A DNA stretch of 64,000 bases from Candidatus Omnitrophota bacterium (lineage in GTDB: Bacteria; Omnitrophota; Gorgyraeia; Gygaellales; Profunditerraquicolaceae): assembly GCA_041650835.1 (NCBI GenBank), contig JBAZKL010000003.1, positions 35,682 through 99,681 of the forward strand. The letters are read 5' to 3'. Of the stretch, positions 26,760-43,998 are shown piece after piece; positions within the stretch are counted from its first letter, which is position 1, and every line of letters starts with the position of its first letter. Both the position numbers and the translations under genes were made by a program. The notes beneath the pieces are model-generated. The model saw only the letters and a list, made by a program, of their open reading frames with translations, had not been told where the DNA came from and made no database searches.

Positions 26760-27101
26760 TCATCCGATTGCTCCTGGACCTCGTTCTTCGGTACGGATAC
26801 GCACGCATTCCTTAAGGTCTAAGACGAAGATCTTTCCGTCGCCGGTCTCCCCTGTCTTGGCTCCCTTGACGATCGCTTTTATCGTCGGCTCTACATAATT
26901 ATCGTTCACCGCGATCTCAAGGCGGATCTTTCGCAGAAGGTTCCCCGTTTCTTTGGCGCCCCGGTACACCTCCGTAACACCCTTCTGCCTGCCGTGCCCC
27001 AACACTTCGCTTACCGTGATCAGGTTAACTTCCGCTTTATATAACTCCTCTTTTACTTCCTCTAACTTGTATGGTTGTATTATCGCTATTATTAACTTCA
27101 T
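26760..27101 (-). CDS. glnK: nitrogen regulatory protein P-II (copy 1)
   Basis: [17 protein letters not shown]..., T-loop RYRGxxY-like region; >99% nt identity to copy at 28862-29206. Confidence 0.9.
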
Positions 27102-27119
27102 ACATCCTCCTTTTCCAAA

Positions 27120-27225
27120 GTCACCAGACACATGTCACAAGTCACAGGTTACAGATCGCAGATGCAAACTGTTCCAATTGTTCTTGTGTCTTGTGACCTG
27201 CGACTTGTGACTCTATATATTCTTT
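27120..27225. repeat. inverted-repeat element with CAGACACATGTCACAAG motif between amt1 and glnK1
   Basis: gtcacaagtcacaggt ... gacctgcgacttgtgac. Confidence 0.4.
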
Positions 27226-28454
27226 TACTCCAATACCGTATACGCCCTCTCCCGGTGCTGCGTCAGGTCAAGGCCCATCATCTCTTCCTTCTCCGTCACG
27301 CGCATCCTAAAGAATATATCCACAAGTTTATATATAACAACCGTGCCGATAAAAGTATAAACTACAGCAACCCCCAAACCGGCCGCCTGGATCAATAATT
27401 GCTTCGGGTTCCCGAAAAACAATCCGTCAGCGCCAGCCGGGTTGACCGCCTTGGAAGCGAATAACCCGGTCGCGAGAGTCCCCAGGATACCTCCAAGCCC
27501 ATGGACACCGAAGGCATCCAGAGAATCGTCATAGCCGAATTTCGGCTTGATCACTGCTACGCCGATAAAACAAACAATGCTGGCAAATATCCCTATTACG
27601 AGCGCGGAAGACGGGCTGACAAAACCGGAAGCAGGGGTAATGGTCGCAAGTCCTGCGATAGAACCGGTAACAATACCGAATACGGTCGGCTTACCGTTGC
27701 GTATCCATTCCAAAAGCGCCCAGCTTAATCCGGCGCTGGCCGCGGCGGCGTTCGTCGCCACAAAAGTACTGACTGCCAGCCCGTTAGCCGCCAGAGCGCT
27801 GCCCGCGTTAAAACCGAACCACCCGAACCAAAGCAGCGCCGTCCCTAAAACTACCAAAGGAAGGTTATGCGGAGCAGGGACATTATGTTCAAGGTTTTTT
27901 CTCCTGCCGATTATTAAGGTAGTCACGAGCGCTGCTATTCCCGCGCTCGTATGCACAACAATGCCCCCCGCGAAATCAAGCACTCCTAAATTCTTAAGCC
28001 AACCTCCCTCACCCCAGACCCAATGGCAAAGAGGGGCGTAAATAAAGGTGCTCCATAAAAGAGTAAATACCAAAAATGCCGAGAAGCGGATCCTTTCCGC
28101 GAAAGCTCCGATAATAAGCGCAGGAGTAATGATAGCGAACATCGCCTGGAATATCATGAATGCCTGGTGCGGGATCGTCCCGGCATACGCGGCATACGGC
28201 TCTACCCCCACGCCGTTCAATCCAAACCAAAGCGAACCGCCCCAAAAACCCTTCCCCGGAGCAAACGAAAGGCTATAGCCAAAAAGCATCCAATGCACCG
28301 TCAACAAACATAAAACAAAGAAACATTGCATCAAGACGCTCAAAATGTTCTTTCTTCTGACCATCCCTCCATAGAAAAAGGCCAATCCCGGGGTCATTAA
28401 CATAACAAACGCGCTCGAGAATAAGACAAATACCGTATCTCCCGAATTAATCAT
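27225..28454 (-). CDS. amt: ammonium transporter (Amt family), copy 1
   Basis: 409 aa, 11 TM, typical Amt signature. Confidence 0.9.
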   Translation of the reverse strand: MINSGDTVFVLFSSAFVMLMTPGLAFFYGGMVRRKNILSVLMQCFFVLCLLTVHWMLFGYSLSFAPGKGFWGGSLWFGLNGVGVEPYAAYAGTIPHQAFMIFQAMFAIITPALIIGAFAERIRFSAFLVFTLLWSTFIYAPLCHWVWGEGGWLKNLGVLDFAGGIVVHTSAGIAALVTTLIIGRRKNLEHNVPAPHNLPLVVLGTALLWFGWFGFNAGSALAANGLAVSTFVATNAAAASAGLSWALLEWIRNGKPTVFGIVTGSIAGLATITPASGFVSPSSALVIGIFASIVCFIGVAVIKPKFGYDDSLDAFGVHGLGGILGTLATGLFASKAVNPAGADGLFFGNPKQLLIQAAGLGVAVVYTFIGTVVIYKLVDIFFRMRVTEKEEMMGLDLTQHRERAYTVLE

Positions 28455-28547
28455 AACCGCTCCTCTCTGCTGATTTGCTCAACTGTTTACACAATTGAAT
28501 AAAAGAACCCAATAAAAATTCCTCCATAGAAAAACGAAGGATTATTG

Positions 28548-28735
28548 GCACCCCGGCTTAAAGGAGTGCCGGGTATGCGCCTTCTGCGGCAACACCCCGG
28601 CTTAAAGGAGTGCCGGGTATGCGCCTTCTGCGGCAACACCCCGGCTTAAAAGGATGTGCCGGGTGTGTTGCTTTCTGCGTACACCCCGCGCTATTCTGTA
28701 TTGCGCGGGTGTGTTGCTTTCTGCAACAAAGGCGT
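28548..28735. repeat. tandem ~44-bp hairpin repeats (x3) plus REP-like unit in amt1 leader
   Basis: cccggcttaaaggagtgccgggtatgcgccttctgcggcaacac x3, then caccccgcgctattctgtattgcgcgggtg. Confidence 0.6.
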
Positions 28736-28822
28736 TTACACACAACTGTTACTATACAATCGTGCATAAACGCCTCTGTTTTGAAAACACAAGCACTGCA
28801 ATGTGCTATTTTATTCTTCTCT

Positions 28823-28855
28823 CTTTACAAGTAAGATAGCACATCTCCTGGTAAC
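28823..28855 (-). promoter_or_regulatory. amt1 promoter region with CCTGGTAAC motif (weaker -10)
   Basis: plus strand TCTTTAcaagtaagatagcacatctCCTGGTAAC. Confidence 0.35.
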
Positions 28856-28861
28856 TATTAT

Positions 28862-29206
28862 TTATCCGATCGCCATAGCTCCCTTTTCTTCGGTACGGAT
28901 ACGCACGCATTCCTTAAGGTCTAAGACGAAGATCTTTCCATCGCCGGTCTCCCCTGTCTTGGCTCCCTTGACGATCGCTTTTATCGTCGGCTCTACATAA
29001 TTATCGTTCACCGCGATCTCAAGGCGGATCTTTCGCAGAAGGTTCCCCGTTTCTTTGGCGCCCCGGTACACCTCCGTAACACCCTTCTGCCTGCCGTGCC
29101 CCAACACTTCGCTTACCGTGATCAGGTTAACTTCCGCTTTGTATAACTCCTCTTTTACTTCCTCTAACTTGTATGGTTGTATTATCGCTATTATTAACTT
29201 CATCAA
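28862..29206 (-). CDS. glnK: nitrogen regulatory protein P-II (copy 2)
   Basis: 2 nt differences from copy 1 over ~315 nt. Confidence 0.9.
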
Positions 29207-29291
29207 AAACCTCCCTTATTCGGTTTTCGGTACTCGGTGCTCGGTTGTCGGTGACCATGTTAGCCGATAACCGAACACCGATAACCCCTGA

Positions 29292-30521
<1,230 letters not shown>

Positions 30522-30764
30522 CTTTATCCTCCTTATTCATTCACACTCATGGGCCTTACCCATTTATTCAAATTACAAACCTCAAACCCGACGCACCCTT
30601 CTCATCGCTGAAAGAGGCATACTCTGTTTATTATTCCTTATGAAAACCCGCCCGTCATGCTGCTTGCCTGTGTCATTTCAACAGCCTAAACAACACACTT
30701 GAATACCCAGTTGTGCAAAAGAGCACAACAAAACCTTACTCCTCCTTTCGTAAAAAACCCTCTT

Positions 30765-30941
30765 TTAAAGCCCTAATTTTTCTTTCACTAATTTCGCGTA
30801 AAGTTTATTGATGCGCTCCGTCTTAAGCCAGCGCTCCAGAGTCGATATCTGCACATCCATCATCCTTGAAAGGTCAAAAAGAGTATATCCATGCTCGACC
30901 TTATAACTCCTCAATTTTCCGATCAGCTCTTTGTCCAGCAT
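30765..30941 (-). CDS. small HTH protein (58 aa) immediately after third P-II gene (start 3 nt after its stop)
   Basis: own translation MLDKELIGKLRSYKVEHGYTLFDLSRMMDVQISTLERWLKTERINKLYAKLVKEKLGL; below ORF-track size cutoff; coordinates approximate. Confidence 0.35.
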   Translation of the reverse strand: MLDKELIGKLRSYKVEHGYTLFDLSRMMDVQISTLERWLKTERINKLYAKLVKEKLGL

Positions 30942-30944
30942 AGG

Positions 30945-31283
30945 TTAAACAGCCTTTTCGCCCTTTTCTCCGGTACGGATCCTTACCACATCCTCGACCT
31001 GGTAAATAAATATTTTTCCGTCTCCTATTTCCCCGGTCCTGGCGATCGAAGAGATAGCGGTAACGATCTTATCAAGATCCTGGTCCTTAATTACCATCTC
31101 TATCTTTATTTTTGGCAGAAAGTTCACCTTGTATTCCCTGCCCCTGAACTGTTCAATAAGCCCTTTTTGCCTGCCATGGCCTTCGATATGCGTAACCATC
31201 ATCCCCGGATAGCCGTATTTTTCCAACGCTTCGGTTATTTCATCGAGCTTCTCCACCCTTACCACTGCCTCTATCTTTTTCAT
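30945..31283 (-). CDS. nitrogen regulatory protein P-II (divergent third copy)
   Basis: MKKIEAVVRVEKLDEITEAL...GHGRQKG. Confidence 0.85.
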   Translation of the reverse strand: MKKIEAVVRVEKLDEITEALEKYGYPGMMVTHIEGHGRQKGLIEQFRGREYKVNFLPKIKIEMVIKDQDLDKIVTAISSIARTGEIGDGKIFIYQVEDVVRIRTGEKGEKAV

Positions 31284-31340
31284 CGCTTCTATCCTCCTGC
31301 GCCTGTCCCCTGAAAAAGAAGACAGGCGCGAAATTCATAA

Positions 31341-32726
31341 TTAATTATTATATGTATAGAAATTAGGGTACGCGGGAGTCCCATGTTCAGGTATATCCAA
31401 CCCTTTTAATTCCTCCTGAGGAGAGACCCGTATACCAAAGATCTTATCCATCACTTTGAACATGATCAATCCGAGCACAAATGCCCAGGTAACGCACACG
31501 GCTGCCCCGATAACTTGAGCAATAAGCTGTCCTGCTCCGCCGCCGTAGAATAACCCTCTTACCAAAGGCGCCTCAGTGCTGCCGAGGCCGTAGGTCCCGT
31601 CGGCAAAGAGCCCGACGCTGATGAGCCCCCATACGCCATTCATGGCATGCACGCTTACCGCCCCGACGGGATCATCTATTCCCCGCGCTTCCCAGAAATA
31701 AACGCTCATTACCACTATCGCGCCGGCGATCAAACCTATCACAACCGCAGCCCATGCCTCAACCCAGGCGCAGGGAGCGGTAATTGCCACTAACCCGGCC
31801 AAACAGCCGTTGAGCATCATGCCGACATCCCATTTTTTTGTCTTCGCGAAAACAAGCAGCAAAGCGCACGCAGCTCCGGCGGCGGCAGCTAAATTGGTAT
31901 TCACCGCAACGACCGATATCCTTAACTGATGCGCGGAAAATGTCGACCCGGGATTAAACCCGAACCACCCGAACCATAAGATAAAAGTACCCAGCGCCGC
32001 CAAAGTGATACTATGCCCGGGGATAGCTTTGGGTTTACCATCCTTGGCGAACTTACCGAAACGAGGGCCTAAGACGATAGCTCCCGCCAACCCGACAAAG
32101 CCTCCTATAGTATGCACGACTCCGGAACCGGCGAAATCAACGTGGCCGATACCAAAGGGAAGTTTCGCAAGCCATCCTCCTCCCCAAACCCAATGCCCGT
32201 ATATAGGATAAATTATCGCCGTAACAATCAGGCTGTAAAAGAAATACGCGCTGAATTTCATGCGTTCGGCAACCGCCCCTGAAACAATGGTCGCCGCGGT
32301 ACCGGCAAAAACCAGCTGCCAGAAAAACATCAGGTATTTCCCTACATCATAATTCTCGCCGTGGAGAAACCAACCGGACGTCCCGATGAGCCCGTGGGCA
32401 TCCTTGCCCATCATGAACGCGAACCCGAACGCCATAAACACTAAAGACGCAATGACAAAATCAATTGTGTTCTTCGCCATCAAATTGGTGGCGTTCTTCG
32501 CCCTGCAAAATCCCGCTTCAACCATGGCAAAACCCGCTTGCATGAAAAAAACAAGGAACCCGCACACCAATATCCATACATAATCCACTGGAGCCTGTGG
32601 ATTAGCGGCAAGAGTCTGCGCCCCGGAAGGATCCTGCGCCCATACTGCCTGCGCGAGCCCCAGGACCCCTAATAATACTAATACGAACTTTTTAAACATG
32701 GTTAACCTCGCTTTTTTAGAATGCAT
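31341..32726 (-). CDS. amtB: ammonium transporter with signal peptide (AmtB-like), copy 3
   Basis: 461 aa, cleavable N-terminal signal then Amt core. Confidence 0.9.
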   Translation of the reverse strand: MHSKKARLTMFKKFVLVLLGVLGLAQAVWAQDPSGAQTLAANPQAPVDYVWILVCGFLVFFMQAGFAMVEAGFCRAKNATNLMAKNTIDFVIASLVFMAFGFAFMMGKDAHGLIGTSGWFLHGENYDVGKYLMFFWQLVFAGTAATIVSGAVAERMKFSAYFFYSLIVTAIIYPIYGHWVWGGGWLAKLPFGIGHVDFAGSGVVHTIGGFVGLAGAIVLGPRFGKFAKDGKPKAIPGHSITLAALGTFILWFGWFGFNPGSTFSAHQLRISVVAVNTNLAAAAGAACALLLVFAKTKKWDVGMMLNGCLAGLVAITAPCAWVEAWAAVVIGLIAGAIVVMSVYFWEARGIDDPVGAVSVHAMNGVWGLISVGLFADGTYGLGSTEAPLVRGLFYGGGAGQLIAQVIGAAVCVTWAFVLGLIMFKVMDKIFGIRVSPQEELKGLDIPEHGTPAYPNFYTYNN

Positions 32727-33600
32727 AGCTTAAATATACGCCCCCATAAAACCTGCTTTTCTGGTTGCCGTTACCTTTATCGCTTATGTTCCCCCAGGGA
32801 ACGGAATAATTGATATTCGGTTTCATCGACAGGCGCTTGGTAAGGGGCATGGTAATGCCTGCCCCGATCGCGGCATCGCCGCCTTTACTTCTATAATACT
32901 GTTTATTGTTATGTCCTACATGACCCGCAAGATCCAGGCTCATAGAAGTTTTCTTTACGGTGAAGGGAATGCTCTTGGAAAGATTGAGCATCGTATAACT
33001 TCCTTCACCACCGCCATCTTCTTTCTTTCCGTAATCATAATAATACGTTACCGAGGGAGATAAGAAGACTTTTGGGAAAGCCAAGCTACCATACACTTCG
33101 CGGCTGAAACCTTTCGGAGCGCCGTCCGTGGGGAGCGCGTCGGGAAAATCATAGTAGATATGCCCCAGCGAAACATCCACATGCTTGAAGTTATAGGTAT
33201 AATCCAGGATATAATCGGTTTCACTTGATTTCAGAAGATCATTATTCTTAAGGTCATGGCTGACCCAATAACCGAACTTGAGGCGCCCAAACTTCGATTC
33301 AGGGCTCTTAATATAAAAACCCGGCTGGATCACGGGATCGCCGTCAAGCATAATGCCTCGCCATATATAAATAGAACTGTAGTTGAGATCACCGGAAACT
33401 TCAAATCCCAAATCAGAAAGGATCCCTTCCCCCGTCGATTCAGTAGCTGCCGACACGACATGCGCAGAAGGATTACGTACCGCGCTTAAATTCGGATCGA
33501 CCTCCTCAGCGAAAGAAGTAGAGCAAAAAAACAATCCTGCCACTATGGCGAACACACTATAAAACACATACCTCATTTTCTCCTCCTTTGTTATAGTCAC
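32716..33600 (-). CDS. outer-membrane beta-barrel (porin-like) protein, first gene of porin-amt-PII operon
   Basis: signal peptide, alternating amphipathic strands, C-terminal ...SYAF. Confidence 0.55.
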   Translation of the reverse strand: MTITKEEKMRYVFYSVFAIVAGLFFCSTSFAEEVDPNLSAVRNPSAHVVSAATESTGEGILSDLGFEVSGDLNYSSIYIWRGIMLDGDPVIQPGFYIKSPESKFGRLKFGYWVSHDLKNNDLLKSSETDYILDYTYNFKHVDVSLGHIYYDFPDALPTDGAPKGFSREVYGSLAFPKVFLSPSVTYYYDYGKKEDGGGEGSYTMLNLSKSIPFTVKKTSMSLDLAGHVGHNNKQYYRSKGGDAAIGAGITMPLTKRLSMKPNINYSVPWGNISDKGNGNQKSRFYGGVYLSYAF

Positions 33601-33918: not shown

Positions 33919-34482
33919 TTAAATCAAATCAATGTATTTCCTGCATTTTTCTCTGACCTTCGCCATACGTTTGATGACCATCACATGCGAGATCCCCAGC
34001 TTCAGGCCGATCTCGCGGGTAGTTAAACCATCCGCATAATAACCGAACATTTCTTTCTCAATAAGGCTGAAGCCGTTATTGCGTATGGTTTCCACTAAAA
34101 GTTTATCGTGCAAATTATCGATATACTCCTTACGATTATCGTTATGATCGGCGATCATGTCCTCCCAGCATATCCCCGACTCCGCGTCGGACGAAAGCGC
34201 TTCAAGGCTTACCAGGCAGCGCCGCGGAGCGGCCTTCCTGATATAATTCTTCAAATAAAAGTAGCACCCCTGTAAAATGTAACTATCCGTCTTATCGGCG
34301 AGCTTCCCCGCGCGAAAATCAGCCAGGAGATGGATCATTGCTTCCTGGAACAGGTCCTCACTGCTTAAAAAACACGAACTCCCCTTTAAACGGTAGGTGA
34401 TCCGTTTTAACACGGGAGTGATCCTTTTTATGACCGTATCAAAATCTGTTTTTTCCATAATTCCACCTTGCTGAAGCATCAT
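33919..34482 (-). CDS. sigma-70 family RNA polymerase sigma factor (ECF-like)
   Basis: region 2 and region 4 HTH (GLTTREIGLKLGISHVMV). Confidence 0.65.
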   Translation of the reverse strand: MMLQQGGIMEKTDFDTVIKRITPVLKRITYRLKGSSCFLSSEDLFQEAMIHLLADFRAGKLADKTDSYILQGCYFYLKNYIRKAAPRRCLVSLEALSSDAESGICWEDMIADHNDNRKEYIDNLHDKLLVETIRNNGFSLIEKEMFGYYADGLTTREIGLKLGISHVMVIKRMAKVREKCRKYIDLI

Positions 34483-43260: not shown

Positions 43261-43998
43261 ATCTCTTTTACCTCTGATATCTTTTGCCAAAATGATCGCC
43301 TCAGCGATCTCTCGCATGCCCTTACGCATATCCATACTTTGCTTCTGGATCAGCCGGAATGCTTCCGCGGAAGAAATATTGGCTTCCTGGGACAAAATAT
43401 CCTTCGCGCGTTCAACGAGCTTCCTGGTAGTCAAAGCTTCTTCTGCGGTGCGGGCGCGAACATCCAGTTCAGCATTCTCGATCGCCACGGCAGCCTGATT
43501 AGCAAGCGCGGTCAGAATATCCACTTCGTGTTTGGTAAAGACGTGCTTTTTGGAAGTATAACAGTTCAAGACCCCGATAACCCTCCCCTTGACTGTTAAC
43601 GGCACGCTCGCCAGGGAGCAAAGGCCTTCTTTAACCGCGATATCGCCATTAAGGTACCGGGGGTCTTCTTTGACATCCAGGACAAACACCGCTTTATTCT
43701 CCTGTGCGGCTATACCGGCGATGCCTTCTCCCAGCTTAACATTCGGCTTCTTATTATAGGCCTCCGATATAGACTGCGTTGCCCGCACTACTAATTCTTT
43801 TTTTTCCGGGTCAAGCAGCATAAGCGAAGAAATTTTAGAATTCATGATCTCGGCGGTTACCTGCACGATCAAACGAAGCAACTCATCCATATATAAGCCG
43901 CTGGTGAGCAGATTGGCCACCTTTGAAAGCGCCTCGATCTGTTTAACATATACCTGGTAATTCTCTTTCTTTTTTACAATTTTAACCGCTTTAGCCAT
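43258..43998 (-). CDS. GAF-ANTAR RNA-binding antitermination regulator
   Basis: GAF domain then C-terminal ANTAR (ERAKDILSQEANISSAEAFRLIQKQSMDMRKGMREIAEAII); ATG overlaps stop of the upstream aminotransferase (ATGGCTAA). Confidence 0.75.
   Translation of the reverse strand: MAKAVKIVKKKENYQVYVKQIEALSKVANLLTSGLYMDELLRLIVQVTAEIMNSKISSLMLLDPEKKELVVRATQSISEAYNKKPNVKLGEGIAGIAAQENKAVFVLDVKEDPRYLNGDIAVKEGLCSLASVPLTVKGRVIGVLNCYTSKKHVFTKHEVDILTALANQAAVAIENAELDVRARTAEEALTTRKLVERAKDILSQEANISSAEAFRLIQKQSMDMRKGMREIAEAIILAKDIRGKRD

Follow-up and report, generated by a model that had tools for sequence, protein, structure and literature searches.

Near-identical glnK genes beside diverged amt genes: probable concerted evolution through gene conversion in an old tandem duplication of an Omnitrophota bacterium

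How can two copies of a PII gene remain almost identical within one bacterial genome when the ammonium transporter genes to which they are joined have diverged? This question is raised by a stretch of 64,000 nucleotides (nt) from a Candidatus Omnitrophota bacterium (GenBank assembly GCA_041650835.1, contig JBAZKL010000003.1, positions 35,682 to 99,681), hereafter the window, in which two tandem units, amtB-glnK_B and amtA-glnK_A, lie on the minus strand beside a third pair, amtC-PII_C. Genes were called from open reading frames (ORFs) and Pfam/NCBIfam profile matches, which bear out the three amt-PII pairs described in an initial annotation made from the letters of the sequence alone. The same annotation had proposed that glnK evolves in concert through gene conversion. 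On the evidence set out below, obtained by comparing the window with fetched contigs and loci (labelled L001-L170), it is considered highly probable that gene conversion between two long-standing tandem amt-glnK duplicates makes their glnK genes evolve in concert.

From the ATG to codon 106, a length of 318 nt, glnK_A and glnK_B differ at nt 63 (TAT/TAC) and nt 264 (GAC/GAT) and nowhere else; the count of two differences made initially therefore holds, and both are synonymous. This homogenised tract occupies 26784-27101 in glnK_A and 28886-29203 in glnK_B. The last seven codons, in contrast, differ at about 10 of 21 nt (RGPGAIG versus KGAMAIG), which leaves paralog-specific ends at 26760-26783 and 28862-28885, stop codon included, and the DNA downstream of the two copies is unrelated. 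At the protein level 106 of 113 residues are identical and the T-loop is unchanged. The transporter genes have diverged as first described, although slightly further than the estimate of about 80% identity: amtA and amtB share 75.6% of their nucleotides in a codon alignment, 78% in the part aligned by BLAST and 77% of their protein residues. Gene by gene, the number of synonymous substitutions per synonymous site (dS) between the window copies is 0.028 for glnK codons 1-106 and 1.09 for amt (1.26 for the amt body alone), the corresponding nonsynonymous value (dN) for amt being 0.157.

The identity had been thought to cover exactly the glnK coding sequence. It does begin at the ATG and the tails do differ, but the last seven codons are excluded, and amtA (27225-27304) and amtB (29292-29371) also agree at every position of their last 80 nt, with no synonymous difference across amt tail codons 384-409. 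The window thus holds two identical tracts, the amt tail and glnK; the spacers between them, 123 and 88 nt long, are unrelated, and at the tract ends the mismatch frequency rises suddenly to about 30-40%. The longest run with at most two mismatches measures 395 nt, whereas none of 10,000 permutations of the mismatch positions gave one longer than 87 nt. At third codon positions, 2 of 132 sites are mismatched in the tract versus 47% in the amt body (binomial P = 1.5e-33).

The most informative comparison is offered by L168, a 5.5-kb contig from another sample, which spans both copies and shares about 94% of its nucleotides with the window. Across glnK nt 1-318, 14 sites are genome-specific and none is paralog-specific, and all 14 fixed differences between window and L168 are found in both copies of each genome. 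The pattern reverses in glnK nt 319-342 (0 genome-specific, 7 paralog-specific sites) and in the amt segment lying 132-81 nt before the stop codon (1 and 15, respectively), and turns again in the last 80 nt of amt (2 and 0). From this switch it follows that the two lineages have common tract boundaries. Between window and L168, dS is 0.22-0.26 for glnK and 0.235 for amtA, and within the genomes the glnK copies differ by 0.028 (window) and 0.000 (L168). Because the between-genome value for glnK matches that of amtA, glnK is under no special synonymous constraint; orthologue dS reaches 1.2-1.4 against L083 and is saturated against other species. The tract of L168 is unbroken: the end of amt (80 nt) is followed by a spacer of 95 nt, identical in the two units, and then by 318 nt of glnK. 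The two L168 spacers are homologous to the amtB-glnK_B spacer of the window (the B type), and the 3' end of the window's amtA-glnK_A spacer resembles that of the L083 A spacer, which together indicate a B-to-A spacer overwrite in the L168 lineage.

The pairing of glnK by genome was judged in the five genomes with both copies complete, using a neighbour-joining tree with 300 bootstrap resamples. In the window, L168, L170 and L085, the two copies are reciprocal nearest neighbours (297-300 of 300 resamples); in L084 they pair by genome in just 39 of 300. Because the copies pair by genome, glnK trees can mislead on the history of the duplication, and caution is needed with PII phylogenies wherever a genome carries several amt-glnK pairs. 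The extent of homogenisation varies: the L083 copies are 99.3% identical over their last 141 nt, tail included, those of L087 show no difference in the first 105 nt, and those of L170 are 94.7% identical, with differences mostly in the 5' half. Each lineage carries its own glnK sequence, and the amt pairs remain at 71-76%. In L084 and L085 the spacers of both units are identical save for indels of repeat units. In four of five genomes, AmtA and AmtB agree with each other in the C-terminal residues EE[M/L/A][M/I], and the last difference fixed between the AmtA and AmtB clades lies at residue 383 in all 13 Amt sequences.

A wider survey covered 167 loci across phyla, together with a metagenome scan with AmtA peptide patterns, in which the best among the matches listed was 70% identical. 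In the Sedimentisphaerales locus L008, amt synonymous sites are saturated and glnK dS is 0.26; L024 has a glnK dS of 0.14 versus 0.43 for amt, and its glnK copies agree throughout their first 185 nt; and L049 has 1.0 versus 1.78. The contrast is modest in L092 (glnK 84% versus amt 78% of nucleotides) and little in L141 and L158. Tandem amt-glnK pairs of other phyla thus show a tendency to partial homogenisation.

The duplication itself is old. The order amtB-glnK-amtA-glnK also occurs in L084, L085/L086, L087, L168 and L170, and in four further ENA contigs as read from gene tables (P0003, P0016 and P0023 were covered through gene tables only). In the Amt tree, AmtA from eight contigs forms one clade and AmtB from five another, in which the window AmtB stands with the B proteins of L084, L085, L087 and L170 and is joined by L002. 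Identities are 82-88% for A-A and B-B comparisons versus 72-77% for A-B, and at 15 positions each clade is fixed for a different residue. Because the tandem order is shared and the AmtA and AmtB proteins fall into two orthologous clades, the duplication predates the divergence of several Omnitrophota species; the glnK tails and downstream flanks are likewise orthologous between window and L168. The content of the array varies, with an A-type unit alone, directly after the 58-amino-acid (aa) ORF, in L169, one B-type unit in L001-L004, and amtB-glnK-amtA with the second glnK absent in JGI contig P0023. Such variation would fit with deletions that arise now and then when the repeats recombine.

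A mechanism can be proposed on this basis. The two units descend from an old tandem duplication and stand as direct repeats. A segment of about 400-500 bp, reaching from amt codon 384/385 across the amt-glnK junction to glnK codon 106, has been homogenised time and again, in all probability overwritten by non-reciprocal homologous recombination (gene conversion), by analogy with tufA/tufB and ribosomal RNA (rRNA) operons. The amt bodies, the last seven glnK codons and the flanking non-coding DNA evolve independently. Extension of heteroduplex is presumably blocked where the mismatch density jumps to about 30-40%, an arrangement that would reinforce itself, and the boundaries are probably held in part by purifying selection against conversion of the transporter bodies, which have diverged in function. 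Several points weigh against this picture or limit it. The glnK pairs of L084 and L085 are only 76% and 82% identical, which speaks for little or just old homogenisation there and for a process that varies across the clade. The unrelated spacers that part the two tracts of the window call for two events or for later replacement of one spacer. Support comes from assembled contigs, in which copy number and the phasing of single-nucleotide polymorphisms (SNPs) across a 200-nt core are indirect, and since assemblers can merge near-identical repeats, the figures for tract identity in the window and in L168 may be a little too high.

Other explanations have to be weighed against gene conversion. It is hardly credible that strong purifying selection, extending to synonymous sites through codon usage or RNA structure, kept the duplicates alike with no conversion at all: PII is short and highly conserved and dN is low in every comparison, yet glnK orthologues diverge freely at synonymous sites (the dS values against L168 and L083 given above), and the presence of 14 of 14 window/L168 differences in both copies contradicts it. 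A single recent event, in which glnK was duplicated beside an older amtB-amtA pair or an amtA unit was transferred in through a crossover within glnK, could draw on loci in which amt-amt-glnK or amtB-glnK-amtA occurs without a second glnK (L006, L048, L055 and L064; P0023) and on the single-unit relatives (L001-L004 and L169). It is nevertheless very unlikely, given the seven paralog-specific sites in the orthologous tails and flanks of window and L168 and the retention of the four-gene tandem in species whose Amt orthologues are just 82-88% identical; moreover, near-identical pairs of differing sequence in several lineages are more than one event can supply. There is also the danger, named in the initial annotation as assembly collapse or duplication, that the assembler created the near-identity, by a mis-join or by collapsing or duplicating a repeat, in the two glnK copies or in the amtA unit as a whole. 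The independent ENA assembly ERZ27247363 (k=141) covers the locus with two contigs: L082 (370 kb) is identical to the window from 40521 to 29000 and ends at glnK_B nt 204, and L081 (2,140 bp) begins at glnK_B nt 123, takes in the leader and amtA, and stops at glnK_A nt 204. These ends are as expected, because the de Bruijn graph breaks at the 200-nt identical core bounded by the two SNPs. Both SNPs against glnK_A and the B tail recur in these contigs, and the amtA unit is by this evidence genuine DNA with a glnK end on either side. In favour of an artefact it can be said that the short-read contigs L081, L082, L083 and L087 break within glnK, that the k=141 graph by itself leaves the core unphased, so that an arrangement X-R-Z with a separate R-Y (R for the repeat) is formally possible, and that L168 starts just 54 nt upstream of its repeat. 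On the other hand, the amtA unit is bounded by a B-tailed glnK 3' end and a glnK 5' end, the independent assembly reproduces both SNPs and both tails, and L084, L085 and L170 assemble the same tandem unbroken with copies that are less alike; a collapse, furthermore, needs pre-existing shared stretches longer than k and cannot make identity out of 76% sequence. The artefact is thus highly improbable and seems largely answered, the tandem being supported by independent assemblies. Such loci nonetheless break short-read metagenome assemblies, several relatives' contigs ending inside glnK, and should be handled with that in mind.

Whether the homogenisation is adaptive is a separate matter, and concerns selection that would keep a shared GlnK and a shared Amt docking tail and shield the paralog-specific parts. 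This is possible, if rather doubtful. All 13 Amt sequences have the 5' boundary at residue 383/384. When AmtB and GlnK of E. coli form their complex, the parts that become ordered are the C-terminal tail of the former and the T-loop of the latter (PMC10433425), and the converted segment accordingly encodes both partner surfaces. Of the 15 clade-fixed A/B differences, five (165, 169, 170, 319 and 324) are no more than six residues away from one of the twin histidines, H168 and H318 (Fisher P = 0.0014), which suggests that AmtA and AmtB might differ in pore or conduction properties. Residue 110 of GlnK mostly follows the amt type across the window, L083, L084, L085, L087, L168, L002, L169 and L170, being M/L in 7 of 8 B-linked copies and G/V in 7 of 7 A-linked copies, and in L083 nothing else differs over the last 141 nt; the stricter statement that residue 110 is always paralog-specific was downgraded to a lead, for L170 has V in both copies. 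Against adaptation, the amt tail and glnK are adjacent on the DNA, so that a single tract spans both without selection and their coincidence is no evidence for it; heterology by itself can freeze a boundary; the L170 tails are identical in both copies; L084 and L085 tolerate diverged GlnK pairs; and the case is read from sequence alone. A more specific version, in which GlnK body and Amt tail are co-converted as a selected module that keeps differing pores compatible, with selection halting conversion at residue 383/384 and protecting a paralog-specific residue close to the GlnK C-terminus, is unlikely. If it were general across phyla, gene conversion would preserve cross-talk between duplicated transporter-regulator pairs. 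By analogy with studied systems, GlnK is inferred to bind and block Amt according to nitrogen status (PMC10433425, PMC3198391). Since both Amt have an identical tail and effectively one GlnK, AmtA and AmtB can be expected to share a single, interchangeable pool of GlnK, with trimers mixing subunits from either gene; the prediction is that one effectively identical GlnK serves two transporters with diverged pores.

The genes and intergenic regions of the locus are collected in Table 1. In order of transcription, all on the minus strand, it comprises an ECF-like sigma-factor gene, a porin-like gene, amtC, PII_C, the 58-aa ORF, amtB, glnK_B, amtA, glnK_A and greA.

Table 1. Coordinates of the amt-PII cluster and its surroundings in the window
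Feature	Positions	Strand	Basis or remark
ECF-like sigma-factor gene	33919-34482	-	TIGR02937 42.1 bits, below cut-off 42.9
Porin-like Gcw_chp-family gene	32716-33600	-	Pfam PF09694 31 bits, cut-off 24
amtC, 461 aa, N-terminal extension	31341-32726	-	Pfam E = 2.4e-132; TIGR00836 above cut-off
PII_C, 112 aa, Tyr51	30945-31283	-	Pfam P-II E = 1.7e-29
58-aa ORF between PII_C and amtB	30765-30941	-	HTH_26 sub-threshold, E = 0.025
amtB, 409 aa	29292-30521	-	Pfam Ammonium_transp E = 1.2e-135
amtB-glnK_B spacer, 88 nt	29204-29291	-	heptad-repeat hairpin
glnK_B, PII, 113 aa, tail EKGAMAIG	28862-29203	-	Pfam P-II E = 1.1e-26
glnK_B-amtA intergenic leader	28455-28861	-	terminator-like hairpin, hairpin array, conserved 3' segment ahead of amtA ribosome-binding site (RBS)
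amtA, 409 aa	27225-28454	-	Pfam Ammonium_transp E = 5e-128; TIGR00836 above cut-off
amtA-glnK_A spacer, 123 nt	27102-27224	-	heptad-repeat hairpin
glnK_A, PII, 113 aa, tail ERGPGAIG	26760-27101	-	Pfam P-II E = 1.1e-26

The Ammonium_transp matches of AmtA and AmtB in Table 1 are to PF00909. The profile TIGR00836 was run on AmtA and AmtC, and the closest PDB match is Archaeoglobus fulgidus Amt-1 (2B2F, E = 5e-108). Residues D160, H168, F215, S219 and H318, whose pore roles we take to be those of E. coli AmtB, were located in AmtA, and the D160, H168 and H318 motifs also in AmtB. The PII genes (PF00543) begin 88-123 nt downstream of amtA and amtB, and the start of glnK_A at the ATG at 27101 agrees with an upstream GGAGG motif and with the homologues. 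Arg47 of the T-loop is present in all three PII proteins. Tyr51, the T-loop residue of PII that is uridylylated or adenylylated in other bacteria, is kept in PII_C only, with Glu at this position in GlnK_A and GlnK_B.

The third operon had been described as porin-amtB-PII-HTH. A porin-like gene and a divergent amt and PII are indeed there, but the supposed helix-turn-helix (HTH) gene is the 58-aa ORF, whose profile match is sub-threshold. AmtC is 35% identical in aa to AmtA and AmtB; PII_C, at 42% aa and 55% nt identity to glnK_A/B, lies outside the homogenisation. Relatives carry a gene of comparable size (265-313 aa) at the position of the porin-like gene. Where the window has amtC, L084 (2231-4099) and L087 (3286-5163) have an amino-acid permease of about 622-625 aa with a C-terminal PII fusion, the PII part of which is 40% identical to PII_C. 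Gene calls of 58-59 aa occur at the place equivalent to that of the 58-aa ORF in L082, L084, L085, L087 and L169, the L085 homologue being 62% identical, and the product may be a small HTH (Cro/C1-type) DNA-binding regulator of the cluster. The ECF-type sigma gene heading the cluster is 50% identical to its L085 counterpart, and L087 and L170 have similar-sized genes with weak GerE/Sigma70_r4 matches at this position. A GAF-ANTAR regulator gene (43264-43965, minus strand) lies about 9.5 kb upstream; it is 81% identical to that of L085, and in L085 and L170 it adjoins the cluster. Either the sigma factor or this regulator could be a controller of the amt genes.

The spacers within the units are unrelated to one another. 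That between amtA and glnK_A forms a long hairpin of GTCACAAG-type heptad repeats, detected as period-7 arrays by Tandem Repeats Finder (TRF), with a minimum free energy (MFE) of -42.5 kcal/mol (z = -3.9); that between amtB and glnK_B forms a hairpin of GGTTATC/GGTGTTC heptads (TRF; MFE -39.3 kcal/mol, z = -5.9). All three amt-PII spacers (27102-27224, 29204-29291 and 31284-31340) carry a strong hairpin next to the RBS of the PII gene, on its upstream side, with z of -3.9, -5.9 and -4.6; their sequences are unrelated, and two of the three are made of 7-nt repeats. Such spacers are wholly replaced between strains of 94% identity, and repeat-rich spacers are also present in L085 and L049.

The leaders of amtA and amtB are unrelated, as first described, and the 44-bp array noted upstream of amtA is real; the ACACATG-type inverted repeat assigned to the other leader sits instead in the amtA-glnK_A spacer. 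The amtA leader contains four GC-rich hairpins at about 28549-28712 (z = -5.4), built from a 44-bp unit present in 2.9 copies at 28549-28679 plus one diverged copy. The hairpin count differs among assemblies, from four in the window to three in L081, an otherwise identical contig, and almost none in L168. The unit occurs nowhere else in the window, which rules out a dispersed element of the repetitive extragenic palindromic (REP) kind. Identification of the leader hairpins with a known riboswitch, for example the glutamine (glnA) RNA, was set aside for want of an Rfam match: no family reached its gathering score across the window, and the region 26.4-34.7 kb gave just chance-level matches to micro- and small-RNA families (miRNA/sRNA) at E up to 1. 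A sigma-54 promoter in the 44-bp unit was rejected, the GG-to-GC spacing, read by eye, being wrong. ANTAR sites are hexaloops, and the array, with loops of 10-12 nt, was discarded as an ANTAR target. A sigma-70 promoter scan returned 16 sites versus 10.7 expected from shuffles, and no promoters were assigned from it; a terminator scan returned 18 versus 9.8. A terminator-like hairpin follows glnK_B (28792-28807) and is conserved in L168 and L083. Because of this hairpin and the unrelated leaders, separate transcription of the amtA unit, and with it the different regulation proposed initially, is plausible.

Linked amt-glnK pairs have been described elsewhere. In Haloferax mediterranei, amtB1-glnK1 and amtB2-glnK2 are likewise two linked pairs in which glnK is much more similar than amt (glnK 84% in DNA and protein; amtB 73% in DNA and 52% in protein), and co-immunoprecipitation suggested that both GlnK proteins bind AmtB1, so that the paralogs appear to cross-react (PMC3831643). 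The identity there is far below that of the Omnitrophota case, the authors read the pairs as a recent duplication with specialisation, and a conversion analysis is not reported in that paper (PMC3831643). Archaeoglobus fulgidus also has several Amt, each with a GlnK partner whose T-loop blocks the channel, but its GlnK proteins have been studied as structurally and kinetically distinct (PMC3198391), and reports of homogenisation for this system were not found in the literature searched. For bacterial tandem amt-glnK arrays, neither glnK conversion nor a mapped tract was found in a literature search that left out most subscription journals.

As a process, a close likeness is with tufA/tufB of Salmonella and E. 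coli and with rRNA operons, where intrachromosomal non-reciprocal recombination also acts between copies with differing flanks, holds the copies close to identity and leaves discrete tract ends (PMC5485169, PMC8022953). Those copies are dispersed, exceed 1 kb and are under dosage selection (PMC5485169, PMC8022953), whereas the Omnitrophota repeats are direct, lie about 2.1 kb apart and share a tract of about 0.4-0.5 kb over parts of two neighbouring genes. As a gene family, the closest likeness is with the Methanococcales PII gene (glnB family), listed among 26 long-lasting cases of concerted evolution in prokaryotes (Wang & Chen 2018, Commun Biol, PMC6053082). In the passages of that work covered here, paralogs within a genome are closer than orthologues, at synonymous sites too, which is ascribed to recurrent conversion, and PII is presented as a homo-oligomer whose stoichiometry is undisturbed by homogenisation (PMC6053082). 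The locus described here is therefore a new example of a known process, with no new mechanism. It is a well-resolved natural case of partial gene conversion in a bacterium, with a tract that spans a two-gene junction and boundaries common to lineages separated by 14 later substitutions, each copied onto both paralogs. The Methanococcales case is archaeal, and the same passages hold neither an amt context nor a tract anatomy (PMC6053082); the Omnitrophota locus goes beyond what they describe in that its tract can be placed on the 3' end of amt and glnK codons 1-106, and in that the linked amt genes, which belong to old orthologous clades, escape conversion.

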